Positions 10,170 through 46,377 of a DNA stretch of 64,000 bases are shown here, one piece after another; positions within the stretch are counted from its first letter, which is position 1, and each line of letters starts with the position of its first letter. A program made the translations under genes and the position numbers. The notes under the pieces were generated by a model. That model saw nothing but the letters and a program-made list of their open reading frames with translations, was not told the DNA's origin and made no database searches. This stretch comes from an uncultured bacterium. Its GTDB lineage: Bacteria; Planctomycetota; SZUA-567; JAKLDR01. The DNA is taken from assembly GCA_937935355.1 (NCBI GenBank), contig CALGYR010000006.1, positions 5,608 to 69,607 on the forward strand, in the 5' to 3' direction.

Positions 10170-10355
10170 AAGCCTGCCGCCCTTCGCGCGGGGCCGTTTC
10201 AAGAAGACGGTTTTTTTGCCGCGGAGAAGCGGAGGCACAGAGCAGGCTCGGGAACGCGGCGGACAGCTCCTGCAGTGAAGAGCCCCGGCCGCGGACACGA
10301 TCCTGTCTCGGCGCCTCCGCGCCTCGGCGGTGAGCATCGGTTCCTGAAATGGCCC
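10170..10355 (+). ncRNA. Conserved non-coding element, copy A (terminator-like hairpin + ~140-nt conserved block)
   Basis: CCGTTTCaagaaGACGG followed by TTTTTTT (10187-10210), then 'GCCGCGGAGAAGCGGAGGCACAGAG...CCGCGGACACGATCCTGTCTCGGCGCCTCCGCGCCTCGGCGGTGAGCATCGGTTCCTG'. Function unknown; copy B is at 46205-46360. Confidence 0.3.
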
Positions 10356-10375
10356 TGACCCGGCTCATCGCATCC

Positions 10376-10403
10376 TTGACAGTCCGGCCCTCCGGCATAC
10401 AAT
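10376..10403 (+). promoter_or_regulatory. Near-consensus sigma-70 promoter for rpsJ (TTGACA-16-TACAAT)
   Basis: TTGACA at 10376-10381 and TACAAT at 10398-10403 with a 16-nt spacer, ~75 nt upstream of the rpsJ ATG. Confidence 0.5.
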
Positions 10404-10476
10404 ACCCCCCGCGACGCCCGAAGACGGTCTGCGGGCGCAGAAGCAACCCAAAGAGGTAGGTTCGTTCGGAGGCATC

Positions 10477-10785
10477 ATGGCGCAGAATCGGATTCGCATT
10501 CGCATGGAGGCGTACGACCACAAGCTGCTGGACCAGTCCGCCCAGACGATCGTCGAGGCGGCCAAGCGCACCGGCGCGCAGATCCACGGGCCCATCCCGC
10601 TGCCCACCAAGATCGAGCGCTACACCGTGCTGAGGAGTCCCCTGGCCGACAAGAAGAGCCGGGAGCAGTTCGAGATCCGCACGCACAAGCGCATCCTGGA
10701 CATCAGCGAGCCCAACGCCAAGACCATCGGCGCCCTGGGCAAGCTCACCGTCCCGGTCGGCGTGGACATCCGCATCAAGGCGTAG
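10477..10785 (+). CDS. rpsJ: 30S ribosomal protein S10
   Basis: '[76 protein letters not shown]' is near-identical in pattern to bacterial S10. RBS GGAGG upstream. It is not followed by rplC. Confidence 0.95.
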
Positions 10786-10821
10786 CCGGTCGTACCCAGG
10801 TCCCTTCAGGAGGGTCGAGAC

Positions 10822-10911
10822 ATGTGCGGAAGCTGCGGCTGCAAGCCCAGGAAGAAGGCGGCCAAAAAGGCCGTCAAGAAGACCGCCAAGAAGGGCAAAA
10901 AGAAGAAGTAA
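10822..10911 (+). CDS. Candidate 29-aa Cys-x2-Cys-x-Cys / poly-Lys peptide (MCGSCGCKPRKKAAKKAVKKTAKKGKKKK)
   Basis: ATG 10822 is 7 nt after AGGAGG (10809-10814). GC3 is ~90% in this frame versus clearly lower in the overlapping 67-aa track ORF 10824..11027. No homolog recalled. Confidence 0.35.
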   Translation: MCGSCGCKPRKKAAKKAVKKTAKKGKKKK

Positions 10912-10993
10912 CAGCCCGACGCGGTCGGCAAACTGCGTTCAGGCGCGGTCTCATCCCCCGGGTGAGGCCGCGCTGTCTTAGGAGCCCAGATTG

Positions 10994-11086
10994 GCCACAG
11001 ATGCACACAGATAAACGCAGATCTTGAGCCTGGGATTGAGGCCGTCTGTCGGCCCCAATCTGTGTGCATCTGTGTTCATCTGTGGC
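10994..11086. repeat. CACAGATG decamer-repeat locus 1 (inverted pair of 10-bp-phased direct repeats) abutting the LarA-like RBS
   Basis: 10994-11023 GCCACAGATGCACACAGATAAACGCAGATC; 11058-11086 ATCTGTGTGCATCTGTGTTCATCTGTGGC in opposite orientation. Confidence 0.6.
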
Positions 11087-11102
11087 TACCAGGAGAGATG
11101 CC

Positions 11103-12332
11103 ATGGTTGATGCCGCCCCGATGAAGCCGCTCACCGAGGAACAGGTCCGCGCCGCGCTCGAGAAGGGCCTGCGGCCCGAGCAGTTCGCCGGCAAGACCGT
11201 CCTGGTGGTCATCCCCGACTCGACCCGCACCGCGCCGGTGGCGCAGTTCTACCGGCTGCTCTGCGAGATGGTCGGCCCGCGCGCGAAGAAGCTCGACTTC
11301 CTGGTGGCCCTGGGCACGCACATGGCCATGTCCGAGGAGGCCATCATGAAGCTGGTCGGGGCCACCCGCGAGCAGCTCGCGCGGCACCCGGTCTTCAACC
11401 ACGAGTTCCGGGACCCCAAGGAGCTCGTGCAGGTCGGCACCTTCAGCAACGCGGACGTCGAGGAGATCTCCGGCGGGCTGATGAGCTGCTCGGTGCCGGT
11501 GGAGGTCAACCGCCGGGTCAACGAGTACGACCAGCTCGTCCTGGTCGGCCCGGTCTTCCCCCACGAGGTGGTCGGCTTCTCCGGCGGCAACAAGTACCTC
11601 TTCCCGGGCATCGCCGGCGCCCGGATCATCGACATGTTCCACTGGCTGGGCGCGCTGATCACCAACGTCTGCATCATCGGCACGGCCGAGACCCCCGTCC
11701 GGAAGGTCGTGGAGCGCGCCGCGGCGATGGTCAAGACCCCCAAGCTCGCCTGCTGCATGGTGGTCGACCACGGCGAGCTCGTCGGCCTGGAGGTCGACGA
11801 GCCCTACGCGGCCTGGAAGCGCGCCGCGGAGCTGAGCGACCGGCTGCACATCGTCTACCACGAGAAGCCGTACAAGAGCGTGCTCTCCTGCGCACCGCAC
11901 ATGTACGACGACATCTGGACGGCCGGCAAGTGCATGTACAAGCTCGAGCCGGTGGTGGCCGACGGCGGCGAGCTCATCATCTACGCCCCGCACGTCACCG
12001 AGATCAGCTACACCCACGGGAAGGTCATCGACGAGGTCGGCTACCACTGCCGCGACTTCTTCGCCAGGCAGTGGGACAAGTACAGCCGGTACCCGTGGGG
12101 GGTGCTGGCCCACTCGACGCACGTCAAGGGCGCCGGGATGTTCGATGGCGGCCAGGAATGCCCGCGCGTGAACGTGGTGCTGGCCACCGCCATCCCCGAG
12201 GAGCGCTGCCGGAAGGTCAACCTCGGCTACCGCGATCCGAAGTCCATCGACCCCAAGCAGTGGATGAACCGCGAGGCCGAGGGCTACCTCTACGTCCAGA
12301 AGGCCGGGGAGATGCTCTACCGGCTGAAGTAG
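11103..12332 (+). CDS. LarA-like (lactate racemase family, DUF2088) protein
   Basis: 'LVVIPDSTRTAP', 'ALGTHMAM' and 'FPHEVVGFSGGNKYLFPGI' resemble the LarA N-terminal domain and nickel-pincer site region. ATG 11103 is preceded by AGGAGA; the track start 11064 lies inside a repeat. Confidence 0.75.
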   Translation: MVDAAPMKPLTEEQVRAALEKGLRPEQFAGKTVLVVIPDSTRTAPVAQFYRLLCEMVGPRAKKLDFLVALGTHMAMSEEAIMKLVGATREQLARHPVFNHEFRDPKELVQVGTFSNADVEEISGGLMSCSVPVEVNRRVNEYDQLVLVGPVFPHEVVGFSGGNKYLFPGIAGARIIDMFHWLGALITNVCIIGTAETPVRKVVERAAAMVKTPKLACCMVVDHGELVGLEVDEPYAAWKRAAELSDRLHIVYHEKPYKSVLSCAPHMYDDIWTAGKCMYKLEPVVADGGELIIYAPHVTEISYTHGKVIDEVGYHCRDFFARQWDKYSRYPWGVLAHSTHVKGAGMFDGGQECPRVNVVLATAIPEERCRKVNLGYRDPKSIDPKQWMNREAEGYLYVQKAGEMLYRLK

Positions 12333-12430
12333 CCGCGCCGGACGCGAAGGGAAGCATCTTCAGAGCTGCCGTAAAGAACTCCTGGGACAGGGTGTTCGAC
12401 GAATAGGCGCCTCATGCAGGCGAATGCCCG

Positions 12431-12470
12431 GCGGCCGCGGGCTCGATCGAAGAGCCCGCGGCCGCTTTGG
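12431..12470 (+). terminator. GC-rich perfect hairpin (13-bp stem, 7-nt loop) followed by CTTTGGGGG between convergent genes
   Basis: CGGCCGCGGGCTC-gatcgaa-GAGCCCGCGGCCG then cttTggggg; sits between the LarA-like (+) and ECF-fusion (-) 3' ends. Confidence 0.4.
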
Positions 12471-12507
12471 GGGTCCTGGATTTACGCGGTGCTCGTGCCG
12501 CTGTGCG

Positions 12508-14871
12508 TCACGGGTTCGATGCCATCCAGGCCGCCTTGTCGCCGGGCTGGATCTCGCCGGTGACTCGAACCAGTTCCGCCATGGCGCTGTTCGGCTGGAC
12601 GCCGACCACTCTGGCGGTGGCGATCTTGTTGCCGGCGCGCTCGATCTCGAACTCGAAGCCGGTCTTCACGCCCTGCTCGAAGCCGGCGTCGAGAATCGCC
12701 TTGCCGTCCGGGACGAGGTCGGCCACCGCGCAGGTGATGCCCTTGCCCGCCGCCGCCCCGCCTTTGTCGTCACGCGCAGGATCTGGCTTGTAGAGCCACA
12801 CCTTGCTGCCCGCCCACATGGTTACGCCGTACTCCGGGATGAACGTTACCACCTCGAACTTGACATTGACATCGTCGGTGATCGGCCGGTACTCGTCCAT
12901 TTTGCTGTCGAACTCCACCAGCCGTTTCCCCGAGTGGAACAGGTAGCGGCCCGAGAGCGGGTCCACCGTCAGAGAGTCGTTCCGGATGGTCAGACTGTCC
13001 GTAGACGGGAAATCCTTCATCTTCCTGAACTTGCCGTCCTTGTCTATTACGGCGACGGCGTGCGAGTCGTTCCCGCCGGCGAAGAGCACCTCCTGGCGGA
13101 AAGGATTGTGCCGGGCCAGGCTGTGGTAGCCGTGAACGGGGAACTTCCCCAGATTCTGCCAGGCCTTTTTCTCCTCGCTGTACGCCGAGAGACCTTCGCC
13201 CCTCTCCAGGGAGAGAAGGCAGTCCATGGCCGAGAAGTATTCCCAGGTCATGCCGCCGCCGCCGCTGGGAACATTGGACCACTTGCCGGTGCGGATGTCG
13301 TAGCACGCGCCGCTGGTGAAGAAACGGCTTCTCTCGGAGTCCAGGGAGTTTTGCGAGTACTGATGGCCGAACTTCTGCAGAATCGCCGGCGCGTTCGGCT
13401 CCCCATCGAAGGGGATGTTCCGCCAGGCGTTCTTCTCCTCGGAGTAGGCCACCAGCTTGCGCGACTGGCGCACCCCGAAGTACAGGCACTGCCCCGTATG
13501 GCTGTCCCAGTGGGCGTCGTCCGACCAGGTCGCGATGCTCAGCCCCTTGGAGGGGCCGACCTTGGGGGCGCCCCAAAGCCCCGCGGGCATCTCGGTCTTG
13601 AGCTCGGCCCAGTCGCCGGGCTTCATCGAGGCGGCCAGCTTGGAAAGCTCGGTCTTGCCGCGCCGGGCCTCCGACGCCTTCCTGGCGGCCTCGTTACCGG
13701 GAATCCAGGCGCCGCCGCCGGGCTGGGCCGATCCCGCCTGTGACGCCGGTTGAGCCACTACGCGGAACCGCGTCGCAGCCCTGTCGCCGACCTGGACTTG
13801 GCCCGTGGCGCTGACCAACTCGGCGATGGCGGTCTTGGGCTCGACGGCGGTGACTCTGACTATGCCGACCTTCTGGCCATCGCGATCGACGTCCAGCTCG
13901 AAGTCCGGCCTGAGTCCCTGGTCCGCGCCGGCCGAGAGTTCCACCCTGCCGCCGCCAAGCAGGGCGGTCACCCGGCACTCGAGGACATCGTCTTTCGCCG
14001 CCGTCCCGACCTTTTGGATCGTGGATTCGGCCGCCAGAAGTCTGGTCGCCAACGCCCCGCCCCCGCCGACGACGGCCAACACCGCCGCGCAGACGGCTGC
14101 CGCCACCTTGATCTTCGTCCAGAACATCATCCTCAGCACTCCTTCCGCCAATTGCACGGGCACGGCATACTGTGCCCCCGCGATCCCTGCCGCCCCCGTC
14201 GCGACGCCGGTCGCCGCGAGCTTCGAGGTCGCCAGGATGGATGGAAGGAGCGCGGCGGGCATCGCTGCGCCGGCCTCGGCGTCGAGGACTGCGATGAGCC
14301 CCGCAGCCGAAAGCACCGCACCGTGCTGCGCCAGCCGCTCGCGCAGGCGGTCCAGGCCGATCTGCGCCCGGCGGGCCAGTGTCCCCTGCGGGCAGCCCGC
14401 CAACCGCGCGGCCTCCTCCTGGGAATGGCCCTCGAGGTAGCGGAGGAGCACCGCCTGGCGCTGGGCGGACGGCAGGGCGTCGATCTCGCGGTCGAGCATG
14501 GCCAACGCCTCGTTCCTGCCCGACTCGCCTCCCGCCTCCCGCCCCCCGTCCCCGCCCTGCACCGGCCTGATCATGGCCGCCTCCTCTTCGTGCCGGATGC
14601 GGCGGGCACGGCTCCGGACAGCCATGCGCCCAACGTTGCCGGCCACTCCGTGGAGCCATCCTGCCAGGCTCGCCACTGGGCGGAACGCACGGGGCTCTCT
14701 GGCCAGGGCCAGGAAGACGGCCTGCGTGGCCTCCTCGGCGTCGTGTCCGTTGCCGAGCAGGCGCAGGCAGGTCCGGTAGACCATCCGGCTGTGGCGGGAG
14801 ACGAGCTCGGCGAAGGCCGCCTCGCTCCCGCCGGACGCGTAGTCCGCCAGCAGTTCCTGGTCCGTACGCAT
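12508..14871 (-). CDS. ECF sigma-70 factor fused to a transmembrane helix and an extracytoplasmic Kelch-like beta-propeller flanked by two copies of a ~65-aa domain
   Basis: N-terminus 'MRTDQELLADYASGGSEAAFAELVSRHSRMVYRTCLRLL...QAVFLALAREP' (sigma-70 region 2) and '...LPSAQRQAVLLRYLEGHSQEEAARLAGCPQGTLARRAQIGLDRLRERL' (region 4). Then TM 'IKVAAAVCAAVLAVVGGGGAL', then a propeller ('...GVTMWAGSKVWLYKPD'), in one uninterrupted 788-799-aa frame. Start is uncertain: ATG 14871 chosen; TTG 14907 and ATG 14901 are alternatives. Confidence 0.75.
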   Translation of the reverse strand: MRTDQELLADYASGGSEAAFAELVSRHSRMVYRTCLRLLGNGHDAEEATQAVFLALAREPRAFRPVASLAGWLHGVAGNVGRMAVRSRARRIRHEEEAAMIRPVQGGDGGREAGGESGRNEALAMLDREIDALPSAQRQAVLLRYLEGHSQEEAARLAGCPQGTLARRAQIGLDRLRERLAQHGAVLSAAGLIAVLDAEAGAAMPAALLPSILATSKLAATGVATGAAGIAGAQYAVPVQLAEGVLRMMFWTKIKVAAAVCAAVLAVVGGGGALATRLLAAESTIQKVGTAAKDDVLECRVTALLGGGRVELSAGADQGLRPDFELDVDRDGQKVGIVRVTAVEPKTAIAELVSATGQVQVGDRAATRFRVVAQPASQAGSAQPGGGAWIPGNEAARKASEARRGKTELSKLAASMKPGDWAELKTEMPAGLWGAPKVGPSKGLSIATWSDDAHWDSHTGQCLYFGVRQSRKLVAYSEEKNAWRNIPFDGEPNAPAILQKFGHQYSQNSLDSERSRFFTSGACYDIRTGKWSNVPSGGGGMTWEYFSAMDCLLSLERGEGLSAYSEEKKAWQNLGKFPVHGYHSLARHNPFRQEVLFAGGNDSHAVAVIDKDGKFRKMKDFPSTDSLTIRNDSLTVDPLSGRYLFHSGKRLVEFDSKMDEYRPITDDVNVKFEVVTFIPEYGVTMWAGSKVWLYKPDPARDDKGGAAAGKGITCAVADLVPDGKAILDAGFEQGVKTGFEFEIERAGNKIATARVVGVQPNSAMAELVRVTGEIQPGDKAAWMASNP

Positions 14872-14994
14872 GGCCACAAAGTTACCCACCGCTCCCTCCA
14901 TCCGCAATGAAGTTGCCGGAGGGGGAGGCCGTGTTCAACGAAAGGCGGCGAATCCTGGAACCGCAACGGCCACGGACCATGCCGGGGAGACACC

Positions 14995-17778
14995 CTACCG
15001 GCCGAAGCAGGCCGGCGCGGCCCGCTCCGCCGCCCGGCGCGATTCCTCCTTCTCTCCCGCGTTCCAGGCGGTCTTGGCGAGCGTGTCCCAGTTCTCCCGG
15101 CAGCGGTCGTCGAGCCGCACGGCCTGGCGCGAGCGCTCCAGCGCCTCCCGGGGGCGGTCGAGCGCCGAGAGCGCCGCAGCCAGGTCGCGCAGCAGGTAGT
15201 CGCGCGCCGGGCCCAGGGCGAGCGCTTCCTCGATCAGTTCCCGGGCCAGGTCCGGGCGCCCGGAGCGCAGGGCCTCCCCGCCCATCCAGCCCAGCAGTGT
15301 CCAGAGCGCGTAGGACGGCTCCGGCGCCGCCGGATCGAGGTCGCGCGCCTGGCGCAGCTTACGGAGGGAGGTCTGCGCATCGCCGGCCGAGGCGGCCGAG
15401 AGCAGCCCCTCGGCCAGCAGCCGGCGGGACATGCGCAGCTTGGACTCCGGGCCGTCGGGGATCGCGCCCGGTCCCGGCTCCCAGAGCCGGGTGACCACCG
15501 TCTCAAGGTTGCGCACGCCCCACTCGCCGCTTCGCGCCAGGCGTCCCTGCGAGAGCAGTTCGGCCAGAGGCAGGTCGTCGCTCGAGGGCCGCGCGCCGTG
15601 GGCCAGTTCCCGGAGCTGCTCCGGCCCGGCCACGCGGTGGGCGAGGACCGCCCCGGGCGAGCCCAGGCCCAGATCGGCGAGCTCCGCGGGCTTGAGCCTT
15701 GAGGACCGGATGCGCGCGGCGAGCTCCCCGGGCTCGGTCGCCACGGCCGCCGGGCCGCGCGAGCCCAGCAGCATGACCACCGGGCGATAGGCGTCCAGGC
15801 ATCCGACCCAGAGGGTCGCGTCCGGGAAGACCTCCAGGAAGGAGCGCACTACCGCGCTGAAAGCCTCCGGCGGCAACTGGAAGAGCGGGATCCACTGGGC
15901 GAAGAGGCCGTCCCCGGCCAGCCGGCTCCGCGCCAGCCGGAAGTACTCCAGCGAGAAGAGGCCGCCGGCCCCCGCGTCCTCCGGGAAGACTATGTCGGTG
16001 ACGATGAGCTCGAACCGGCCGCGCTCGGCGAGCAGCCGCGAGCGGCCGTCGGCGACGCTCACGGCGAAGGTCGCGACCGAATTGTGCGGCCGGAAGGCCC
16101 CGGCGGCGCGCGCCACCGCCGGGGAGAGCTCGGCGCACTCCACCGGGCGGCCCGGCGCCGCGGCGGCGCTCCAGGCGGCGGTTACGCCCGAGCCCAGGCC
16201 GACGTGCAGCGTGCGACCCCGCGCAGCCGGACAGAGCAGGGCCGGCAGCGCGCCCATCCGCTTCTCGACGCGCAGCCACGGCGTCGTGTCCTCGGCCTGC
16301 ATCTTGGGGCCGATGTACAGGCGCCGGACCCGGCGGCCCTCGCTGGGCTCGCGTTCCGCGACGAGGGAGACGACCGCCTCGAGGTCCTCGGTCTGCGACT
16401 CGAGCACGGGCTCGGCCTCCGGGGCGGTCCCCAGGGCACGGAGGCCGTATAGCTCCGTCTGCGCCGCCGGCAGCACCGCCGCGGGCAGCGCCAGGATGAT
16501 CAGCCAGCGCCCGGCCGCGCCGAGCCGGCTGCCCCGGCGAGCCGACCAGAAGGCCAGGACCAGAGCGGCGAGGACGGCTGCGCCGCCGAGGGCGGCCAGG
16601 GTCCACCTGGTGCCCAGGAGGGGCAGGAGGACCAGCGCCCCGACGACCGGACCGGCCACCGAGCCGAGGTCGAGCGCCGCGGCCGCGCCGCCGACCGAGC
16701 GGCCCACGCGGCCGGCCGAGGGGGAGAGCAGGTGGACGAGGAGCGGGAAGGCCGCGCCGAGCGCCAGCATGGCCGGCGCGCAGGCGGCGAAGGCGATGGT
16801 CAGGCTTCCGGAGCCGCGCCCCATGGCCGCGAGCGTCGGCACGGAGAGCCCGGCGAACGCCCCCCCGAGGGCCAGGAGCACCGCGAGCGCCGGCGCCGCC
16901 GACAGGGCCGAGGGCTTGCGGATCAGCCAGCCGCCCAGAAAGGAGCCGGCGCCGAGGGCCAGGATGCAGACCGCCGAGACCGCGGCGAAGGCCCGGATGG
17001 TGCTCGACGAGCCGAAGAGCACCGCACGCAACTGGGCGAGCTCGACGCACAGGACCAGCGCGCCGGCCAGACCGGCGAGGACCAGAGCCGCGGCGCGCGG
17101 CAGGGCCCGGGCTTCCTGTTGCCGGGCCGGCCCGGCGGTGTGCCTGGCGCGCTTCTCGTCGGGCGTGGTCGGATCGCGGGCCAGGAAGAAGCCGGCCGCC
17201 GCCGCGGCGAGGCTGAGCCCGGCGGCCAGGACCACGCTCAGCCGCAGGCCCAGGGCCGGGATGAGCAGCCAGGCCGCCGCGAGCGCGCCGGCCGCGGCCC
17301 CCAGGCAGTTGGCGGCGTGCAGCCGCCCGGCGATGCGCGCGGCGGCGCCCTCGCGACCGGCGGCCGCCCAGCGCGCGACCACGGGAAACGCCCCGCCCAT
17401 CAGACCGGCAGGCAGGAAGAGGAAGAGCGCGGCCAGGGCGAAGCGGGCCGCGCCCGCGGTCAGGGCGCCCGAACCGGCCGGGACCAGGGCGGAGTAGACG
17501 GGCGGCAGCGCCGCGGGCACGGCGAGCAGCGCCGCCCCGCAGAGCGCCGCGCCTAGTTGCAGCAGAGCGAAGAGCCTTCGCGGAGACGCGGAGCGGTCGC
17601 CGATCCGTCCGAACCAGGCCGCCCCGGCGGCCAGCCCGCCCAGGTAGGCGGCCAGCACCGCGGCGGCCGCCGGCGCCGTGCCGCCATAGCTCAGTGCAAA
17701 CCAGCGCGCCCAGACCACCTCGTGGACTAGGCCGGCGAAGCCGGTCAGGAAGAGCAGCAGCGCGAACACGGGCCCCAT
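14995..17778 (-). CDS. Spermidine-synthase-like fused membrane protein (N-terminal multi-TM domain, SpeE-like SAM-dependent domain, C-terminal TPR-like tail)
   Basis: About 12 predicted TM segments (Ala/Leu-rich). Then 'LHVGLGSGVTAAW' (SAM-binding GxGxG) and 'DIVFPEDAGAGGLFSLEYFRLARSRLAGDGLFAQW' (SpeE-like). Start set at the internal ATG 17778 because a MITE-like element overlaps the track start 17835. Confidence 0.7.
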   Translation of the reverse strand: MGPVFALLLFLTGFAGLVHEVVWARWFALSYGGTAPAAAAVLAAYLGGLAAGAAWFGRIGDRSASPRRLFALLQLGAALCGAALLAVPAALPPVYSALVPAGSGALTAGAARFALAALFLFLPAGLMGGAFPVVARWAAAGREGAAARIAGRLHAANCLGAAAGALAAAWLLIPALGLRLSVVLAAGLSLAAAAAGFFLARDPTTPDEKRARHTAGPARQQEARALPRAAALVLAGLAGALVLCVELAQLRAVLFGSSSTIRAFAAVSAVCILALGAGSFLGGWLIRKPSALSAAPALAVLLALGGAFAGLSVPTLAAMGRGSGSLTIAFAACAPAMLALGAAFPLLVHLLSPSAGRVGRSVGGAAAALDLGSVAGPVVGALVLLPLLGTRWTLAALGGAAVLAALVLAFWSARRGSRLGAAGRWLIILALPAAVLPAAQTELYGLRALGTAPEAEPVLESQTEDLEAVVSLVAEREPSEGRRVRRLYIGPKMQAEDTTPWLRVEKRMGALPALLCPAARGRTLHVGLGSGVTAAWSAAAAPGRPVECAELSPAVARAAGAFRPHNSVATFAVSVADGRSRLLAERGRFELIVTDIVFPEDAGAGGLFSLEYFRLARSRLAGDGLFAQWIPLFQLPPEAFSAVVRSFLEVFPDATLWVGCLDAYRPVVMLLGSRGPAAVATEPGELAARIRSSRLKPAELADLGLGSPGAVLAHRVAGPEQLRELAHGARPSSDDLPLAELLSQGRLARSGEWGVRNLETVVTRLWEPGPGAIPDGPESKLRMSRRLLAEGLLSAASAGDAQTSLRKLRQARDLDPAAPEPSYALWTLLGWMGGEALRSGRPDLARELIEEALALGPARDYLLRDLAAALSALDRPREALERSRQAVRLDDRCRENWDTLAKTAWNAGEKEESRRAAERAAPACFGR

Positions 17779-17815
17779 TCTACACCGGGCGGGCGGGAAG
17801 TCACGCCGGTCCGGG

Positions 17816-18009
17816 CGTTCCCCAGGGTCTTTCAATTTTGCCCAACGGGCCTACAACTTGGGGCCGGCGGTGCTATCGCCGCCGGCCCCAAGTTCCCTCC
17901 AGAGCCGATCCTCGCTCGAGAGCAGGGGACCGAAAGCCAAGTCCTGACAGCAGGACTTGGCTTTCAGGTAGGCCCGTTGGGCAGAATTAAGAGACCCTGG
18001 GGCGTTCCC
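17816..18009. mobile_element. MITE-like structured element: 39/42-bp terminal inverted repeats enclosing two perfect hairpins
   Basis: Left arm 17816-17854 (CGTTCCCCAGGGTCTTTCAATTTTGCCCAACGGGCCTAC) is the near-exact reverse complement of right arm 17968-18009. Internal palindromes: 17855-17894 (AACTTGGGGCCGGCGG...CCGCCGGCCCCAAGTT) and 17932-17965 (GAAAGCCAAGTCCTG...CAGGACTTGGCTTTC). Confidence 0.5.
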
Positions 18010-18029
18010 GCCCGAGCCGCAGAGCGCCG

Positions 18030-18110
18030 CTACCTGCCGGCCGCAGCCTTCTTGTACCGGTAGGCCCACATCGTCCCGTTGTCGCGGCCGTCGCAGGCGG
18101 TGTGCAGGTT
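18030..18110 (-). pseudogene. Out-of-frame 3' fragment of a Kelch-family gene ('NLHTACDGRDNGTMWAYRYKKAAAGR*') directly after the HEAT/Kelch gene stop
   Basis: 56 of 58 nt identical to the 3' end of the paralog at 37811..39169 (…GGTAGGCCCACATCGT[C/A]CCGTTGTCGCGGCCGTCGCAGGCGGTGTGCAGG), shifted +1 relative to the 18109..20781 reading frame. Confidence 0.45.
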
Positions 18111-21935: not shown

Positions 21936-22180
21936 GTCCTGCCTCCTGACGTGGTAGTGAGCTATACACGTTGTTGACGATGTTGTTGCTGGCAAAACCG
22001 TGGATAACTCCAAAGGAGCCGGGGGATGGGGGCCAAGAGCAGTAGAAGCTCACGAGCAGAGGATCCTAGAGCAAAGCCTCTGCCATATATCCGGACAACA
22101 GGGCCGCGTGAGTTTCCAGGTCTGCCCCTCCCTGCACAGGCATCTCGTGCAGGTCTGGGGTGCGCCTACTTTGTCTAAAA

Positions 22181-24562: not shown

Positions 24563-24719
24563 TTTCCTCCCGGAAACACGTCCTTTGACGCACTCCTATA
24601 GCACAGAATACACCCAATGCGTGCCATTGCAATGCCATAATTCCTAAGATGGCAGTTGAGTTCGACGAGATGTCTATCGTAAGCCACTGTGATTCTGGGT
24701 GATGGGCATTTGCTGGTCT

Positions 24720-24735
24720 TGGAACACCTATTGCT
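24720..24735 (+). promoter_or_regulatory. Sigma-54 (-24/-12) promoter TGGAAC-N5-TTGCT upstream of the radical-SAM gene
   Basis: TGGaaCacctaTTGCt has GG and GC separated by exactly 10 nt (consensus TGGCAC-N5-TTGCW). It lies in a low-GC stretch 22 nt upstream of RBS AGGAGG (24757-24762), divergent from the sigma-54 activator gene. A perfect palindrome CATTGCAATG (24625-24634) lies ~90 bp upstream and is a candidate upstream activator sequence. Confidence 0.55.
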
Positions 24736-24768
24736 TTGTCAAGAACGCTTCGGCCCAGGAGGTGACCG

Positions 24769-26127: not shown

Positions 26128-26157
26128 AGTGCAGGGCTCCACTCAGGAGGGCGGAAA

Positions 26158-34319: not shown

Positions 34320-34369
34320 CTTCGTCCTCCCTCGAGTTGACATGGCAGCCCTCTTCTCTTGCGTCTCAT

Positions 34370-36331: not shown

Positions 36332-36360
36332 CTTCGTCCTCCCGTCAGAACCCTCGGATC

Positions 36361-37722
36361 CTACTTGCCGGCCTTCTTGTGCCGGTAGACCCACATGACG
36401 CCGTTGTCCACGCTGTCGCCGGCGAAGAACACGAAGTGGACGTTGAGTTCCGGATCGTAGAAGGCGTGTCCGCAGTCCGAAGGTCTCTTCGTCCCGTCGG
36501 GCAGCGGAACGGGACTGGCCCAGGTGCCGGTTTCGGGATCGTAGGCGTGCAGCGTCCTGTCCGGGTAGTTGAGAAACAGCACCACATCGCCCGCGGAATC
36601 GTAGTGAACCGAGCAACGGTTGGTCGACCAAGCCTGCGGGCACTCGCCCCTGGCGTCAGGCCTGGACCATGTCTCCGTCTTGATGTCGAAAGCCAGGATG
36701 GCGTTCCGATCGCCCTTCTTCATGGCCATGGGTCCGATCGCCCCGCTCCAGATGCGGTCGCGCTTCGAATCGTAGCAGGCCCCGATGTCGCCCCCGGACG
36801 GGCCCGCGCCCTTGACCTCCACCGTCGTCCAGGACTTCCGGTCGGGATCGAAATAGGCGGCCTTCTTCTCGCTGAAGAGGAGCGGCTGCTTCCTGGATGG
36901 GATGTACATGAACTGCGGATGGCTGTTGAATCCCTGGATCGCGCGGGACGCGGCTGACAGGGCGTAGCGCTCGAACTCGCCCCTGGCCGTGTCGTAGAAC
37001 CAGGGCGACAGGGTCTGCGCGGCTTTGTCCTTCATCTGCTCCTGGAGGAGCCCCAGGCCTTCCGCGACGTCCTTGGCGTCGCGGGAGTTGTAGCTCGTGC
37101 CGGGAAAGTAGTACTTGTTGTAGCCGCAATCCGCCATCACCGCGAACTTCTTCCGGTCCGTGTCATACGTCAGGAATCCCCACGCGTGAATCAGGTGGCC
37201 GGGCATCGACCGGCCGTCCTTGTCCGTCACCAGGCCGTGCTCGTTGACCTTGAGGTCGCCGTTCCTGACCTGTTGGGTCAGAGTCTTGGTGTTTGTGCCG
37301 GGATAGATGCAGATCCAGCGGTGCGCGTTGATGTCGTAGACCCAGTAGTCGTTCATGCCGTAGCCGTCCGGCTTGACGTAAGCATGAATCCCCTCTCCGG
37401 TGAAGTAGGCGCCGCGGATATCTGGGGCCAGGGCGAACGCCTTGCCGCCCCAGGCCCGCCCCCGGGCCCGACCCCACTTGGGATCGGCGGCGGGAGGTCC
37501 CAGGTTCAGCCACTGGTTGTCGCCCAGCGCCCTGACCTTCTCCAAGTGCGGCCCTGGCGCACTCGGCAGCGCGGCCAGCGGTCCCTTGCGCTCGGCCTTG
37601 TCGGAAGTCCCGGTGGCCCCCGGCTCCCCGGCGCCGGCCGTCAGCCTGGCCGCGCGCGACCCGACACCGCCCATCAAAACCGCGGTGACCACCGCCGCCG
37701 CCAGCTTCGTTCTGATGCTCAT
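36361..37722 (-). CDS. Secreted Kelch-like beta-propeller protein (tandem array member)
   Basis: ATG 37722 after AGGAGAAGGG; signal peptide 'MSIRTKLAAAVVTAVLMGGVGS'. 'GPHLEKVRALGDNQWLNLGPPAADPKWG...GMNDYWVYDINAHRWICIYPG...GDSVDNGVMWVYRHKK'. Confidence 0.8.
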   Translation of the reverse strand: MSIRTKLAAAVVTAVLMGGVGSRAARLTAGAGEPGATGTSDKAERKGPLAALPSAPGPHLEKVRALGDNQWLNLGPPAADPKWGRARGRAWGGKAFALAPDIRGAYFTGEGIHAYVKPDGYGMNDYWVYDINAHRWICIYPGTNTKTLTQQVRNGDLKVNEHGLVTDKDGRSMPGHLIHAWGFLTYDTDRKKFAVMADCGYNKYYFPGTSYNSRDAKDVAEGLGLLQEQMKDKAAQTLSPWFYDTARGEFERYALSAASRAIQGFNSHPQFMYIPSRKQPLLFSEKKAAYFDPDRKSWTTVEVKGAGPSGGDIGACYDSKRDRIWSGAIGPMAMKKGDRNAILAFDIKTETWSRPDARGECPQAWSTNRCSVHYDSAGDVVLFLNYPDRTLHAYDPETGTWASPVPLPDGTKRPSDCGHAFYDPELNVHFVFFAGDSVDNGVMWVYRHKKAGK

Positions 37723-37810
37723 CTTTCCCTTCTCCTTGCTTTGGCAAAAGCACATCCCCTGCCTCCAGCAGGCCGCTTTTAACGGCCTGCCAGTTCTTCT
37801 GGCGCCTTCT

Positions 37811-39169
37811 CTACTTCTTCTCCGCCGCCCGCTTGTAGCGGTAGGCCCACATCGTACCGTTGTCGCGGCCGTCGCAGGCGGTGTGCAGGATGTGGGCGTT
37901 GAGCTCCGGGTCGTAGAAGCCGGTCCAGGTGGGGTTGCCCTGGCGCTTGAGCTCAGGCGGATCCTTTGCAGCCACCTCCCACTCGTTCTTCTCCGGGTGA
38001 TAGACGTAGACGCCGGGCGCCTCGTCGCCCTTGGAGCGGTGGAAGAACAGTACCACCGCGTCGTTGACGCTGTCGTAGAAGAGCATGGCGCGGTTGGTCG
38101 CGTAGCTCGTGGGGGTCGGATTCACCTTCGGCTCCAGGCGCGAGAAGGTCTCGGTCTTGACGTCAAACATCCACAGGGCGCTCTCGCCAGGCTTGATCTC
38201 CAGGCCCTTGGCCGGGTAGATGCCGCCGGCCAGATAGATCCGGTCGCGCTTGCTGTCGTAGCAGCTGTTCGGGTCAATTTGCCAGGGAGGAGGGGTTCCT
38301 TTGCGTTTGATCTCCACCCAGTCCTGAGCCCCGGGATCGTACCAGGCGATATGGGAACTGCGGTTCTTGTAGCCGAAAGCCTTCTTAACGGTGGGAACGT
38401 AGACAAGAGTGGCGCCGAAACCGCCCGGTGAGTTTGGATTGGCGGTGCGATAGCGTTCGAAGCGACCGGTCCTGGAGTTGTAGATGTACGGGCTGGAGCC
38501 CTTGCTTGCAGCCCACACCGGCTCTTTGCCCGCCGCCCGGGCCTTGTCCGTGGACTCCTTGTGCGCCTTCAGGGCTGCGACTCTTCCGATGATGCCCTTG
38601 TGAAAGTCGCCCTCCTTCCAGTACGCCCCCGGGCACCCCATGTTCATGAAGAGCCCGCGGTCGGTGTCGTATGTCACCATGCCGTAGGCGTGCACCATTG
38701 ACGCGATGGGCAGGGGCTGGCCGTCCGGGGCCACTTCGAAGCCGGTCTTCTCGTCGAAGCCGATCTGCCCGTAACCCTCCTTGGCGTGAATGCCCGGATA
38801 CACGCAGATCCACCTGTGCTGGTTGAGGTCGTAGAACCAGAGGTCGTCGTGGTAGTGCCCGTCGGGCTTGACCATCCCGTGCGGGCCCTCGCCGAAGACG
38901 AACGCCCCCCGCAGGTCCGGGGCGAAGGGCGCCACCGGCGACCAGCTTCGCCCCCGGGCCTTGCCCCACTTGGGATCGGGAGCAGGAGAGCCGAGATCTA
39001 CCCACTGGTTGTCGCCGAGCGCCTTGATCTTCGCCAAGTGCTCGCCCTTCGGCTCGCTCGGCAGCGCGGCCAGCGGGCCCTTGCGCTCGGCCTCGGCAGG
39101 CTCTCCTGCCCCGAGAGCCCCGGCGGTCAGGGCCAGAACCAGAGCCACTGCACAGACATGCCTTGCCAT
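37811..39169 (-). CDS. Secreted Kelch-like beta-propeller protein (tandem array member)
   Basis: ATG 39169; signal peptide 'MARHVCAVALVLALTAGALGAGEP'. 'HLAKIKALGDNQWVDLGSPAPDPKWG...HYHDDLWFYDLNQHRWICVYPG...CDGRDNGTMWAYRYK'. Confidence 0.8.
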   Translation of the reverse strand: MARHVCAVALVLALTAGALGAGEPAEAERKGPLAALPSEPKGEHLAKIKALGDNQWVDLGSPAPDPKWGKARGRSWSPVAPFAPDLRGAFVFGEGPHGMVKPDGHYHDDLWFYDLNQHRWICVYPGIHAKEGYGQIGFDEKTGFEVAPDGQPLPIASMVHAYGMVTYDTDRGLFMNMGCPGAYWKEGDFHKGIIGRVAALKAHKESTDKARAAGKEPVWAASKGSSPYIYNSRTGRFERYRTANPNSPGGFGATLVYVPTVKKAFGYKNRSSHIAWYDPGAQDWVEIKRKGTPPPWQIDPNSCYDSKRDRIYLAGGIYPAKGLEIKPGESALWMFDVKTETFSRLEPKVNPTPTSYATNRAMLFYDSVNDAVVLFFHRSKGDEAPGVYVYHPEKNEWEVAAKDPPELKRQGNPTWTGFYDPELNAHILHTACDGRDNGTMWAYRYKRAAEKK

Positions 39170-39191
39170 GAGTCTTTCTCCCCTCTCTGGT

Positions 39192-41473: not shown

Positions 41474-41712
41474 GTCACTTTCAGCACACTGCGAAATACA
41501 CCGGACTGAGCTCGGAGTTGTCGAAATTCCTTGAAACTCGCCGGCGGCAGTTCCACTAACCGAGCTGTTGAATCACACTTAGACAGTGCATATCAAGCAA
41601 TTGGCGCTTCCCATTGGCGCGGAGCCGGTGTATTCTGCCCCAGTCGTCTCCGCAGCTGCACACAGATGTGCAATCTGCGCGACGGGGATGAGTTGAGGAA
41701 CTGGAGACAACC

Positions 41713-43047
41713 ATGGCCAAGATCGCCTTCGTCGGTGCCGGAAGCCTGGGCTTCACCCGCGGGCTGGTCCGCGACCTGCTGACCTTCCCGACCATGCGCG
41801 ACGCGACCATCGCGCTCATGGACGTGGACCGGGAGCGCCTGGACTTCGCGACCCGCGCTGTCCGGACCATCGTCGAGCGCGGCAAGTACCCGGCGAAGGT
41901 CGTCCCCACCATGGACCGTAAGACGGCGCTCAAAGGGGCCGACTTCGTGGTCTGCACGATCCTGGCCGGCGGCGTGCAGGTCTGGCGCCACGACATCGAG
42001 ATCCCCAGGAAATACGGCGTGGATATCAACGTGGGCGACACCCGCGGCGTCGCCGGGATCTTCCGGGCGTTGCGCACCATCCCGGTGATGGTCTCCATCT
42101 GCCGGGACATGGAGCGGCTCTGTCCGAACGCGCTGCTCCTCAACTACACGAACCCGATGGCCATGCTCTGCCGGGCCATGCAGCGCTCCTCGTCGATCCA
42201 GCTAACCGGCCTGTGCCACAGCGTGCAGGGCACGGCCGGGATGCTCGCCAGGTGGCTGGGCGCGCCGATGAGCGAGATCGACTACGTCTGCGCCGGCATC
42301 AACCACCAGGCCTGGTATGTGAAGTTCCAGCGCAAGGGCCGGGACGTGATCCCGCTGCTTCGCCGCAAGGTGGCGGCCGACCGGAAGATCTACCGCGAGG
42401 AACTGGTGCGCAACGAGATGTTCCTGCACCTGGGCTACTACGTGACCGAGTCGAGCGGCCACAACTCCGAGTACAGCTGGTGGTTCCGCAAGCGCCCGGA
42501 TCTGGTCCGGAAATACTGCAGGAACCACCCGGGTGCCGGCTGGAACCCGGGCGAGCATGCCTACATCCTCAAGCGCTACCTCCACGCCGAGAAGAACTGG
42601 AAGAGGGAGATCCGCGACTGGTTCGCCAAGGGCGCGCCCATCAAGCTGGAGCGCGGCCACGAGTACGCCGCCTCGATCATGCACGCGCTATTGGGCGGCG
42701 AGACCTTCGAGTTCAACGGCAACGTCCCGAACACCGGGCTGATCGACAACCTGCCCCGGGGGGTCTGCGTGGAGGTGCCGGTGCTGGCAAACCGCCGGGG
42801 CCTGAACCCCATGCACGTCGGCGCGCTCCCGCCGCAGTGCGCGGCGCTCAACAACGTGAGCGTCGCCTCCGAGGAGATGGCCGTGGAGGCCGCGCTCACC
42901 GGCGACCCGGACCTGGTCTTCCAGTCGATCGCCATCGACCCGCTGACCGCGGCGATGCTGTCGCTGGCCGAGATCAGGAAGATGGTCGGGGAGATGCTCG
43001 CGAAGAACCGCGCCCACCTGCCGCAGTTCAGGTCGGTGAAGCTCTGA
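41713..43047 (+). CDS. Glycoside hydrolase family 4 (NAD/Mn-dependent alpha-galactosidase/alpha-glucosidase-like)
   Basis: '[14 protein letters not shown]' Rossmann N-terminus, '[14 protein letters not shown]', '[16 protein letters not shown]', 'GINHQAW' typical of GH4. Confidence 0.85.
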
Positions 43048-43108
43048 CTTGGAGTGCGTCCGGGGCGCCTTCGGTTCCCGCCACACGCGCATTGCCATCA
43101 AGCGGCCG

Positions 43109-43221
43109 GTTAACCACGAAGTCACAAAGCCACGAAGAAACACGAAGCGGCCTTTTCCAATGGATGGGCCAATGCTCATCTTAGTGTTTCGCTTTGTGCC
43201 TTGGTGACTTTGCGGTTGACC
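43109..43221. repeat. Palindromic CACGAAG-repeat element, copy A (imperfect ~40-bp inverted arms around a 30-bp spacer)
   Basis: Left 'GGTTAACCACGAAGTCACAAAGCCACGAAGAAACACGAAGCGG' (43109-43150); the right arm (43181-43221) is its imperfect reverse complement. Related to the element at 50614-50790. Confidence 0.5.
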
Positions 43222-43314
43222 GGCCGTTTCCGACGCCGGGGCAGCTTGATAAGCCCGCGGCCGCACTTAAAATCTTCCGCATTCGCCGTTGGAAGCCGAC
43301 CGAAAGGACGCCCC

Positions 43315-44583
43315 ATGCTCTCCCTCGAGTTCATCCGCGAGAACCCCGACCTGGTCCGCCGCGCGGTCGTCGACAAGCACGACGCCGCCGACGTGGATCG
43401 GATCCTGGCGCTCGACTCCGCGCGCCGTGCGAAGCTCACCGAGATCGAGGTCCTGAAGGCCGAGCGCAACGCCGGCTCGAAGGAAGTCGGCCGGCTCATG
43501 AAGGAGAATCGCGAGGAGGCCGAGAAGCTCAAGCTCCGCATGAAGGAGCTCGGCGAGAAGGTCGCGGCCCTCGAGAAGGAGTTCGCCGGCACCCAGGAGG
43601 AGCTCGACGGGCTCCTCCTGCGCGTCCCCAACGTCCCGGACGAGACCGTCCCGGCCGGCGCCGGCGCCGAGGGCAACGTCGAAGTCCGCTCCTGGGGGAA
43701 GAAGCCCGAGTTCGGCTTCGAGCCCAAGGCCCACTGGGACCTGGGCGAGAAGCTCGGCATCCTCGACTTCCCGCGGGCCACGAAGATCTCGGGGCACGGG
43801 TTCATCGTCTTCAAAGGGCTCGGCGCCCGGCTCGAGCGGGCCTTGATCGCCTACATGCTGGACATGGCGGCGAAGGCCGGCTACACCGAGGTGGCCGTGC
43901 CGTATCTCGTCAACCGCTCCTCGATGACCGGGACGGGGCAGCTCCCCAAGCTCGAGGAGGACATGTACCGGCTCAAGGACGACGAGCTTTTCCTGATCCC
44001 CACGGCCGAAGTCCCGGTCACGAACCTCCACGCCGGCGAGACGCTGCGGGCCGAGGGGCTGCCCCTCAAGTACTGCTGCCACTCGGCGTGCTTCCGGCGC
44101 GAGGCCGGCTCCTACGGCAAGGATACCCGCGGAATGATCCGCGTCCACCAGTTCGACAAGGTCGAGCTCGTCAAGATCGTCCCCGAGGAGGCCAGCCCCG
44201 CCGAGCACGAGGCGCTCACCGCCGACGCCGAGCGCGTGCTCCAGAGCCTCGGGCTCCACTACCGGACGATGCTGCTGTGCCGCGGGGACCTGTCTTTCGC
44301 GGCGGCGCGCTGCTACGACATCGAGGTCTGGGCGCCGGGGCAGGGCAGATTCCTGGAGGTCTCGAGCTGCTCGAACTTCCGCGACTTCCAGGCCCGGCGG
44401 ATGGGCCTCAAGTACAAGGATGGGCAGTCGAAGCCGAAGTTCTGCCACACCTTGAACGGCTCGGGCACGGCCCTGCCGCGGCTGGTGATCGCCCTGATGG
44501 AGACCTACCAGCAGGCCGACGGGAGCATCCTGCTGCCGGAGGTCATCCGGCCCTACATGGGCGGGGTGGAGAAGATCGACTAG
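43315..44583 (+). CDS. serS: Seryl-tRNA synthetase
   Basis: 'MLSLEFIRENPDLVRRAVVDKH' N-terminal coiled-coil, then class II motifs 'FRREAGSYGKDTRGMIRVHQFDKVE' and 'GSGTALPRLVIALMETYQ'. ATG 43315; the track's 38-aa extension is rejected. Confidence 0.95.
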   Translation: MLSLEFIRENPDLVRRAVVDKHDAADVDRILALDSARRAKLTEIEVLKAERNAGSKEVGRLMKENREEAEKLKLRMKELGEKVAALEKEFAGTQEELDGLLLRVPNVPDETVPAGAGAEGNVEVRSWGKKPEFGFEPKAHWDLGEKLGILDFPRATKISGHGFIVFKGLGARLERALIAYMLDMAAKAGYTEVAVPYLVNRSSMTGTGQLPKLEEDMYRLKDDELFLIPTAEVPVTNLHAGETLRAEGLPLKYCCHSACFRREAGSYGKDTRGMIRVHQFDKVELVKIVPEEASPAEHEALTADAERVLQSLGLHYRTMLLCRGDLSFAAARCYDIEVWAPGQGRFLEVSSCSNFRDFQARRMGLKYKDGQSKPKFCHTLNGSGTALPRLVIALMETYQQADGSILLPEVIRPYMGGVEKID

Positions 44584-44589
44584 GGGCTC

Positions 44590-46230
44590 TTACAGCGTCG
44601 ACATCTTCATGATGCCGTAGAGCCGCATGTTGCAGTCGGTCATGCGGCTCTGCAGCTGGTCGTTGTCGGGGTCGGCCTTGACGGCCGCCTCGTAGAGCTC
44701 CTGGGCCTTGCGGAGCAGCTTGCGCGCCTCGGACTGGTGCTGCTTGCAGTCCGGCATGTTGGGCATGGCCTTATAGTAGTGGGTGATCCCTTCCTCGAAG
44801 AGGCGGTTGGCCTCGGAGAGGTCCACCTTGGCGGTGACCCTGCTGACCGTCACCTTGACCGGGGCCTTGGGGGGATCGACGCGACTGACGCTGGAAGCTC
44901 CGTTGGGTTCCTTGATTTCCTGAGGAGGCTTGACCTCGACGCCGCTGACCTGCACCGTGGACTTGTAGTTGATGCCCTTGCGCTTGTCCATCAGGGCCAG
45001 CATCTGCTCGGAGGCCTCGAAGAAGCTGGTCTTGCGGTACATGACGTTGTCGCGGATCTTCTCGCAATAGCGCCGGGCCCAGATCTCCTGGCCGACCGAG
45101 TCGGACCAGTTGGCCTGGGCGAAGAGCCGGCTGGCCTGGTCCTCGGCGACGAGCAGCACCAGATCCTTGCCGCCGGTCTCGGCAGCGGCCCAAGCCTTCT
45201 CGAGGATGGGCAGCGACTCCTCGCGCAGTCCGTTCTCGACGGCGAAGAAGGCCGCGTCGCAGAGCTCGGGCGGAGTCGCCGCGGCGCCCAGCTTGGACAG
45301 CCGGGTATTGAGCGCCTTCTTGAGCTCGGCCCGGCGCTCGGCGGGGTCGATCTGCTGGACGTTCCGGACGTCGTCGGCCGTCAGCGTGTAGGTCATCTGG
45401 CCGCCGCCGGACGTGCCGGCCAGCACCGAGTAGCCGCCATCGGGCTTCCTGGTCACCACGCCCTTGATCTTGGTGCCGTTGACCAGCTCGACGATGGAGA
45501 TGAGCTGGTCGGCGTCGGCGCGGACCTTGATGTCCCTGGTGAGGCGGTCGAAGGCCTCGGCCTTGCGCTTGAGCGCCGCGGCCTCCTTGGCGACCTCCGG
45601 GGAGACCTTCATGATCTCGACGCTGCCGAAGGCCTTGAGCGCGCCGGGATAGTTGATCTTGGCGAGCAGGTCCCTGCCGTCGGCGATGGCCTTGGCCGCC
45701 GCGCCGTTGTCGGGGGTCGACGGTGGCGGGGGCGGAGGGGGCGGAGGCGGCGGCGGGGGATTCGTACCGGTGTTCACCGGCGTCACCGGAGTCACGGGGG
45801 TGACCGGCGTGACCGGGGTCACCGGTCGGACCGGCGTGGTTTCCGTGCGGTCCGGCCCGGTCTTCTTGCCGAGGAGTTCGTCCTTAAAGGCCAGCCCCGC
45901 CCCCACCGCCCCCGCCAGGACCATGAACATGATCAGCATGGTCATGCGGCTGCCGCCGGAACCTCTGGACGGACGGTAGCTGGCGGTGCCTACTGCCCCG
46001 CGCTTGCCAGTGCCCACCGCGGACCGGCCGCCCGTTCCCACCTTGGGGGTCTTGCCGGTTCCGGCCGCTTTGCCGTTGCCGTTACTGGGGGTTGGTTCTG
46101 GCACGAAGACTCCCTTCCGCCTCCCAAATGTCGTGCACCCAACGACATAGATATATACACCACCGCGGGGCGTCTTGTCAACGAACTGCGAAGCGGGCTT
46201 CCCGGGCCATTGCAGGAAAGGTAGTTTCAC
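44590..46230 (-). CDS. Hypothetical membrane-anchored protein with (PVT)n repeat and 13-residue poly-Pro linker
   Basis: TM 'MTMLIMFMVLAGAVGAGLAF', then 'RPVTPVTPVTPVTPVTPVNTGTNPPPPPPPPPPPPPSTPD' encoded by 9-bp GTCACCGGn tandem repeats (45770-45840) and a G/C run (45718-45757). C-terminal globular region without recognised motifs. Confidence 0.55.
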   Translation of the reverse strand: MKLPFLQWPGKPASQFVDKTPRGGVYIYVVGCTTFGRRKGVFVPEPTPSNGNGKAAGTGKTPKVGTGGRSAVGTGKRGAVGTASYRPSRGSGGSRMTMLIMFMVLAGAVGAGLAFKDELLGKKTGPDRTETTPVRPVTPVTPVTPVTPVTPVNTGTNPPPPPPPPPPPPPSTPDNGAAAKAIADGRDLLAKINYPGALKAFGSVEIMKVSPEVAKEAAALKRKAEAFDRLTRDIKVRADADQLISIVELVNGTKIKGVVTRKPDGGYSVLAGTSGGGQMTYTLTADDVRNVQQIDPAERRAELKKALNTRLSKLGAAATPPELCDAAFFAVENGLREESLPILEKAWAAAETGGKDLVLLVAEDQASRLFAQANWSDSVGQEIWARRYCEKIRDNVMYRKTSFFEASEQMLALMDKRKGINYKSTVQVSGVEVKPPQEIKEPNGASSVSRVDPPKAPVKVTVSRVTAKVDLSEANRLFEEGITHYYKAMPNMPDCKQHQSEARKLLRKAQELYEAAVKADPDNDQLQSRMTDCNMRLYGIMKMSTL

Positions 46231-46360
46231 TGCGGAGACGCTGAGAAGCAGAGATTGCTTGTGAGCGCGGCCAACGGTCGTTGACGGGAAAGGCTCCCGC
46301 CGCGGACCGGATTCGGCCTCTGCGCCTCCGCGTCTCGGCGGTAAGTATCGTTTCTTGCGT
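46205..46360 (+). ncRNA. Conserved non-coding element, copy B
   Basis: 'CACTGCGGAGACGCTGAGAAGCAGAG...CCGCGGACCGGATTCGGCCTCTGCGCCTCCGCGTCTCGGCGGTAAGTATCGTTTCTTG': ~50/62 identity to copy A in the 3' block and similarity in the 5' block. The hairpin is degenerate here. Confidence 0.3.
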
Positions 46361-46377
46361 TGGCTCCAGAGGAGTCG

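Follow-up and report, generated by a model that had tools for sequence, protein, structure and literature searches.

Within the 64,000 nucleotides (nt) of the planctomycete contig CALGYR010000006.1 analysed here (the window), we found three copies, termed A, B and C, of a palindromic element. Each copy is one long hairpin, a property missed by the original prediction, which had seen in A and B a conserved non-coding block and proposed a small RNA gene, a leader or a promoter-proximal module. We consider it reasonably likely that the three copies form a genome-specific subfamily of dispersed intergenic palindromic repeats, similar to repetitive extragenic palindromes (REPs), that acts as an RNA hairpin at transcript 3′ ends or between cistrons. 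The copies are as follows.

Copy A, 10189-10357: whole palindromic element, between the divergent glycosyltransferase gene at 9350-10096 (minus strand) and rpsJ at 10477-10785 (plus strand); from fold, alignment and BLAST.
Copy B, 46204-46365: whole palindromic element, between the Kelch-like gene at 46378-48420 (minus strand) and the gene at 44590-46104 (minus strand); from fold, alignment and BLAST.
Copy C, 59675-59815 (limits from alignment): diverged third member, inside the loop of a CACAGATG-type hairpin at 59645-59852.

The relatedness of A and B, in the same order and orientation, was borne out by BLASTN, which aligned 10191-10346 with 46204-46357 at 69.9% identity over 156 nt (E value 2e-13). 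A MAFFT alignment of the two contained a single 2-nt gap across approximately 168 columns, and a 36-nt block (GCGCCTCCGCGYCTCGGCGGTRAGYATCGKTTCYTG) occurs in copies A and B only, with 0 occurrences expected from 100 shuffles. The flanks are unalignable beyond 10189-10357 and 46204-46365, so the repeated unit has sharp ends; these limits, which are also those of the hairpin, replace the ones first proposed. A profile built from A and B found copy C with nhmmer at 59675-59806 (E value 5e-5), giving three subfamily copies per 64 kb. Copy C has the core arms and central domain of A and B, with a 17-nt insertion and a 7-nt deletion. The earlier idea of a repeated, structured element with further relatives was therefore correct, given copy C in the window and core arms in many phyla (see below). 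All three copies are non-coding, as had been claimed for A and B, and a Pfam scan of open reading frames (ORFs) crossing the elements gave no match.

On the plus strand, A and B each fold as one long imperfect hairpin, with free energies of -100.1 kcal/mol (z -5.2) and -85.8 kcal/mol (z -4.5), respectively, and their reverse strands fold almost equally well. Each copy also matches its own reverse complement by BLAST, with 68.5% identity over 143 nt. The plus-strand folds of A and B have 50 consensus pairs in common, none of them broken and four compensated, and the minus-strand folds have 42. In the alignment of A, B and C there are 44 pairs, seven with double changes. All three copies thus retain the hairpin.

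The hairpin has three layers: an outer stem, present in A and B only; core arms of approximately three 8-nt units; and a central domain of approximately 65 nt. The core arms read ACCGCCGAGrCGCGGAGGCGCnGAG and its complement, that is, ACC-GCnGAGrC in three units, and we refer to GCCGAGrC GCGGAGGC GCnGAG as the canonical arm. Stems of the elements are approximately 60-80 bp long. The parts of A and B are listed here.

10217-10242: core 5′ arm of copy A, purine-rich, approximately three 8-nt units GCCGCGGAG AAGCGGAG GCACAGAG; from the inverted-repeat pair 10219-10242 / 10307-10330 and lag-8 periodicity.
10243-10306: central domain of copy A, with an invariant CGCGGC...GCCGCG inner stem in A, B and C; from the three-copy alignment and consensus fold.
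10307-10335: core 3′ arm of copy A, pyrimidine-rich, CTCGGCGCCTCCGCGCCTCGGCGGT; the canonical arm common to other phyla.
46229-46253: core 5′ arm of copy B, ACTGCGGAGACGCTGAGAAGCAGAG; from inverted-repeat and lag-8 analysis.
46318-46342: core 3′ arm of copy B, CTCTGCGCCTCCGCGTCTCGGCGGT; from the inverted repeat, BLAST and the block match.

The core loop is 64 nt in both A and B, and the lag-8 self-match of their arms is 0.46-0.62. Tandem Repeats Finder made no call on these arms, with their roughly three imperfect units, and called sister hairpins in the window with periods of 8-10.

The outer stem of copy A contains CCGTTTC..GACGG followed by seven T residues (CCGTTTCaagaaGACGG+T7, 10194-10220), which had been read as a terminator-like hairpin preceding the element. 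The sequence is there, but that reading is mistaken: in the fold this segment pairs with CCGGTTCCTGAAATGGCCC (10336-10357) as the outer stem of the palindrome, the T-run lies inside the stem and does not occur in B, and a terminator scan flagged nothing at A or B, 10194-10220 included. Upstream of it there is no plus-strand gene to terminate. A metagenome scan for the outer stem of A and B (CTCGGCGGTnAGnATCGnTTCnTG) returned seven loci, all of them chance coding matches without a hairpin, and the outer stem therefore seems confined to the source genome.

The gene context also bears on what the element could be. The consensus rpsJ promoter reported near A was confirmed (TTGACA-16-TACAAT, 10376-10403, 11 of 12 matches), but it begins 18 nt past the hairpin end and not at the approximately 60 nt given before. 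The rpsJ -35 hexamer follows copy A, which places A outside the rpsJ transcript and leaves a leader role unsupported. Copy B does lie between two minus-strand genes, as stated originally, 13 nt 3′ of the stop codon of the Kelch-like gene and approximately 100 nt 5′ of the start of the gene at 44590-46104. Neither promoter is part of the repeat: that of rpsJ (plus strand) adjoins the pyrimidine-arm end of A, whereas that of the minus-strand gene adjoins the opposite end of B, which argues against a promoter-proximal module.

To look for relatives, we searched for a 20-base core pattern, GCCTCCGCGnCTCGGCGGTnAG, in the genomes of 185,579 species and obtained 28 loci in at least six phyla, from Acidobacteriota, Verrucomicrobiales, Chloroflexota, Pirellulales, Nitrospirota, Polyangiaceae and one metagenome-assembled genome (MAG) of Bifidobacteriaceae. 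A complementary purine arm was present in 16 of the 28 loci, upstream in all 16, with loops of 6-288 nt; the rest comprised approximately ten solo arms and two or three chance coding matches. This purine-arm-first order is not universal, being reversed in L011 3325-3399 and in L055. In the arm alignment, 91.7% of cells pair, compared with 33-52% when the partner is slid. Two freely varying arm positions covary (G-C/A-U/G.U and A-U/G-C/C-G), although the covariation statistics are weak because the 5′ arms were chosen with a fixed pattern. Loops are conserved within a genome and differ between genomes, as in the three copies of one Terriglobia MAG. A search of IMG/VR added 12 loci on viral contigs (L043-L054) with the same core arms, nested and solo forms included. 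Nesting is seen in copy C, in L016 and in the viral contig L050, and the hairpins at L050 2634-2783 and at L016 6278-6447, in a Pirellulales MAG, have identical arms (CACCACGGAGACACGGAGGCACGGAGA). Rfam gave no match to the canonical hairpins at nine foreign loci, and a literature search for the literal arm sequences found none. As a separate observation, a Terriglobia MAG has a group II intron (D1-D4 domain, 175 bits) at L018 3013-3624, with a canonical core hairpin approximately 0.8 kb away, probably by coincidence.

The foreign copies favour one position and one orientation. In the CTnACCGCCGAGnCGCGGAGGC reading, nine foreign loci have the element 6-26 nt past a same-strand stop codon, and where the flanking genes are co-directional they are on the element strand in 12 cases and on the opposite strand in three (binomial p ~0.035). 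The G of GGAGGC forms a G.U pair with the partner arm on the strand predicted by this rule and a C.A mismatch on the opposite strand, and this asymmetry points to a role in the sense transcript. Copy B obeys the rule. We also compared the orthologous site of B in relatives with approximately 72% identical Kelch-like proteins. After the Kelch-like orthologue, L055 5010-5095 contains an unrelated hairpin of 7-mer units, (TCGGCnT)x4/(GCCGAnA)x4; L056 2380-2420 an ordinary GC hairpin with a T-rich tail; and L057 3045-3135 CACAGATT and CAACCGA arrays around a GC hairpin. Such different hairpins at one site suggest a shared positional role with fast turnover. The closest homologues of the glycosyltransferase beside copy A show approximately 70% identity and no synteny.

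A, B and C are not the only hairpins of this general build. Approximately ten tandem-unit hairpins occur in the window and the 5.6 kb of contig to its left (approximately 70 kb), and these and the associated arrays are listed below.

10973-11097: hairpin of CACAGATG units; overlaps the Shine-Dalgarno-like sequence AGGAGAG of the larA-like gene and stops 6 nt short of its start codon.
43100-43229: hairpin of CACGAAG units; ends 16 nt before a promoter-like site.
50619-50768: hairpin of CACGAAG units.
54156-54184: solo array.
54244-54271: (CCGGAAC)x4 run adjacent to the solo array.
57050-57560: giant 8-mer palindrome between divergent genes, approximately 12 GGGGACAC/GGTGACAC units opposite approximately 18 GTCCCCGC units, period 8, with a spacer of approximately 230 nt that contains unit-like runs.
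59645-59852: nested hairpin of CACAGATG type hosting copy C; decayed 5′ arm at 59645-59676, 3′ arm at 59823-59852.
L059 13515-13674 and 14674-14797, just left of the window: two further unit hairpins; one, of CACCAAGA units, begins at an ABC ATPase gene's stop codon, and the other, of CACAGAGGA units, separates two convergent genes and lies 16 nt beyond a stop codon.

In the window, by a gene map based on GC content at third codon positions, hairpins are carried by four of seven divergent intergenic regions, four of approximately 22 co-directional ones and none of eight convergent ones.

The RNA role that we favour is clearest for copy B. When minus-strand transcription of the Kelch-like gene continues into B, a very stable RNA stem is predicted to form. 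Like REP elements and intercistronic hairpins of the RNase III type, this stem would keep cistrons apart or serve to mark or protect the 3′ end. Such a hairpin would replace the canonical terminator, which the source genome seems to lack; in 20 kb, 8 canonical terminator-like sites were found and 7.7 expected, which is no enrichment. On this model, B is probably a 3′-end or intercistronic RNA hairpin of its upstream gene. Copy A is probably a tolerated insertion between two divergent promoters, with no transcript-level role, and copy C is probably a tolerated copy inside another hairpin.

Several observations weigh against an RNA role of this kind. The plus strands of A and B fold slightly better than the minus strands on which the orientation rule would place the RNA (-100.1 versus -94.7 kcal/mol and -85.8 versus -79.0 kcal/mol), and the numbers of G.U pairs on the plus and minus strands, 6 versus 6 in A and 7 versus 6 in B, are uninformative. 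Four of the eight window elements, A among them, lie between divergent genes, with no known transcript crossing them. No U-tract follows the hairpins (on the minus strand, copy B is followed by GGGAAGCCCGCTTCGCAG), and their flanks tend to be T-rich on the 5′ side and A-rich on the 3′ side, the reverse of an intrinsic terminator. The approximately ten solo arms keep the position and orientation of the paired ones, so pairing may not be the whole story, and the gene calls behind the orientation counts at foreign loci are heuristic and our own. As for the dispersal of the repeats, by eye we saw no target-site duplication, and we saw no transposase beside any copy; it is thus their dispersal and nesting alone that argue for mobility.

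The elements might instead work as DNA, with the 8-nt units serving as sites for a nucleoid or regulatory protein (IHF/HU-like) or the palindrome extruding as a cruciform that buffers or insulates supercoiling near promoters. This would suit the excess of hairpins in divergent over convergent regions of the window, the short distances from A to the rpsJ -35 hexamer and from 43100-43229 to its promoter-like site, the nearly equal folding of both strands of A and B with symmetric G.U counts, and the persistence of solo arms; IHF/HU binding has also been proposed for paired tandem-repeat sites of a like unit type in Geobacter (PMC2700814). However, the promoter flanks a different end of the element in A than in B, its distance is not constant, and a convergent gene pair just beyond the window also encloses a hairpin. 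Many of the foreign copies occupy short gaps between cistrons right after stop codons, with a bias in their orientation with respect to the gene that a purely duplex-DNA site would not predict, and we identified no candidate binding protein. We therefore regard a DNA-level role as unlikely, while giving it some weight. A non-autonomous transposable element without host function, either similar to MITEs (miniature inverted-repeat transposable elements) or of IS200/RAYT type, is in our view doubtful. Its transposase, supplied in trans, would recognize the ACCRC...GYGGT base, and phages would carry it between phyla. That the repeat unit equals the hairpin, that insertions are nested in hairpin loops, that a Pirellulales MAG and a viral contig have identical arms and 12 viral-contig loci carry arms, and that loop and flank variants are particular to each genome (the Terriglobia MAG with three copies being an example) are all as expected of such an element, and in Geobacter insertion sequence (IS) elements have been described at a constant distance from sites of a similar kind (PMC2700814). 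Set against this, inspection by eye revealed neither a conserved target nor a target-site duplication where A, B and foreign copies end, no transposase gene was seen beside any copy, and the many distinct unit types would each need a cognate enzyme. The non-homologous unit hairpins at one orthologous site fit in-situ growth by slippage equally well. A wider claim than ours, which we also doubt, is that all these hairpins belong to one cross-phylum superfamily, its near-identical arms kept by shared machinery, and generally take the place of canonical terminators across Planctomycetota, Acidobacteriota, Verrucomicrobiota and neighbouring groups. It would build on the common ACCRC...GYGGT base, the CRCNRAG(N) units, the purine-arm-first order, the fixed post-stop orientation and the occurrence on phage contigs as well. 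The machinery could be a widely distributed enzyme that builds or copies tandem-unit palindromes, or a conserved factor, acting in RNA processing or associated with the ribosome, by which the GGAG-rich arm is read.

Independently transcribed small RNAs, whether a long-hairpin RNA, a 6S-like RNA, an antisense RNA or the rpsJ leader, are very unlikely. In their favour are the stability and conservation of the structure, which shows some compensatory changes, and the retention of the central domain in three copies. But a scan found no promoter-like or terminator-like signals bracketing A or B, A is upstream of the rpsJ promoter, C is nested in another hairpin, tandem units of low complexity, common to hundreds of unrelated intergenic hairpins, make up the core arms, and the metagenome scan did not find the outer stem outside the source genome. 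The Rfam scan called for in the original prediction did not help the small-RNA proposal either. With Rfam 15 at the gathering score there were 0 matches in the whole window, 6S RNA included, and at E values up to 10 the two regions matched only sub-threshold plant and animal microRNA-precursor models, on both strands, as long hairpins in general do. Among other identities that we tried and rejected were a tRNA- or tmRNA-derived element (ARAGORN found 0 genes in the window), attC sites (the R''/R' consensus does not hold consistently), 6S RNA, for want of an Rfam match, and a coding remnant, for want of a Pfam match. The chance that the similarity between A and B is fortuitous or reflects decayed fragments of a coding gene is negligible: only the GC-rich, low-complexity composition speaks for it, whereas the E value of 2e-13, the 36-mer with 0 expected occurrences, the palindromic symmetry and the absence of a Pfam match among the crossing ORFs speak against it.

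Hairpins of this kind have been noticed before and left uncharacterized. The closest precedent is in Geobacter metallireducens (Aklujkar et al. 2009), in which class 2 sites comprise 21 pairs of three tandem TCTCCGTS[Y] units on opposite strands, class 1 sites have GTTGCTYN x4 and class 3 sites MTYCTGA x5 (PMC2700814). These were described in supplementary alignments only and read as sites for the global regulators IHF/HU (PMC2700814). Like them, the elements here are intergenic and multicopy, with three to five tandem units of 7-9 nt in opposite-strand pairs at variable distance, which gives a hairpin; A and B have at least three such units per arm in an inverted pair. Likened by unit description, the class 2 unit on the other strand, [R]SACGGAGA, is of the unit type of CGCGGAGA/CACGGAGA. 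Unlike the Geobacter sites as reported, A and B have a long outer stem and a conserved central domain. In Xanthomonas, GGGAATC arrays form 70-75 convergent inverted pairs that can form stem-loops near the end of the neighbouring ORF, and the STRR heptamer GGGGAYT of Nostoc/Anabaena forms intergenic tandem arrays of 7-nt units; the study of these stressed G-quadruplex formation and assigned no function (PMC4692102). The present units differ from both in sequence and length, their arms are not prone to form G-quadruplexes, and the central domain of A, B and C is unique to them.

REP, BIME and REPIN elements are dispersed extragenic palindromes in genome-specific families, REPINs being inverted pairs that form long hairpins, and the proposed roles of REPs are mRNA 3′-end stabilization and termination (PMC3733652, PMC3116915). 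REPs measure 20-40 bp, bear a GTAG or CGTC tag that is left unpaired, and are associated with RAYT transposases (PMC3733652, PMC3116915). A and B, in contrast, have tandem-unit arms with a sequence common across phyla and neither tag: they begin and end with GGGGCC.../...GGCCC, and their core with ACCGC.../...GCGGT(G/A)AG. With regard to a RAYT association, no transposase was seen next to any copy in approximately 70 kb of the source genome. The window does contain a separate GTAG-type REPIN-like palindrome at 17820-18002, with 35-nt arms that are 91% complementary and have inner ends GCCCAACGGGCCTAC ... GTAGGCCCGTTGGGC; it consists of two inverted GTAG-tagged REP-like units around a 113-nt spacer with two small hairpins. 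Like intrinsic terminators, the elements can place a GC-rich stem right after a stop codon, and at L056 the orthologous site is a normal terminator; unlike them, they have no U-tract, their stems are approximately 60-80 bp instead of 5-15 bp, and copies also lie between divergent genes. With MITEs they have in common that they are short, non-coding and dispersed, with long terminal inverted repeats and nested insertions, but their arms are tandem short units and no parent IS was found. By inspection, no direct repeat flanks A (..TTCGCGC| |TGACCCG..) or B (..GGCTTCC| |CAGAGGA..), and the same holds for foreign copies.

The consequence for annotation is that calling such elements small RNA genes or leaders should give way to masking them as dispersed palindromic repeats. 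The elements explain contig breaks and odd conserved non-coding blocks in MAGs of Planctomycetota, Acidobacteriota and Verrucomicrobiota, and they occupy expected terminator sites in genomes without enrichment of canonical terminators. The near-identity of the arms across phyla and viral contigs would be of wider interest if it were due to a shared factor or a mobilization mechanism.

Two further observations concern genes of the window. Downstream of copy A, rpsJ stands alone with its own consensus promoter and is followed by a 29-codon lysine-rich ORF (10822-10911) and the larA-like gene, which is not the usual S10 operon (10477-11103). Several paralogous Kelch/beta-propeller-type genes in the window have stretches of DNA in common that are 70-93% identical (4077-4336 versus 38791-39041; 18041-18108, 36366-36433 and 37822-37889; and 47606-48142), a similarity that reflects expansion of a gene family and has no relation to the hairpins.

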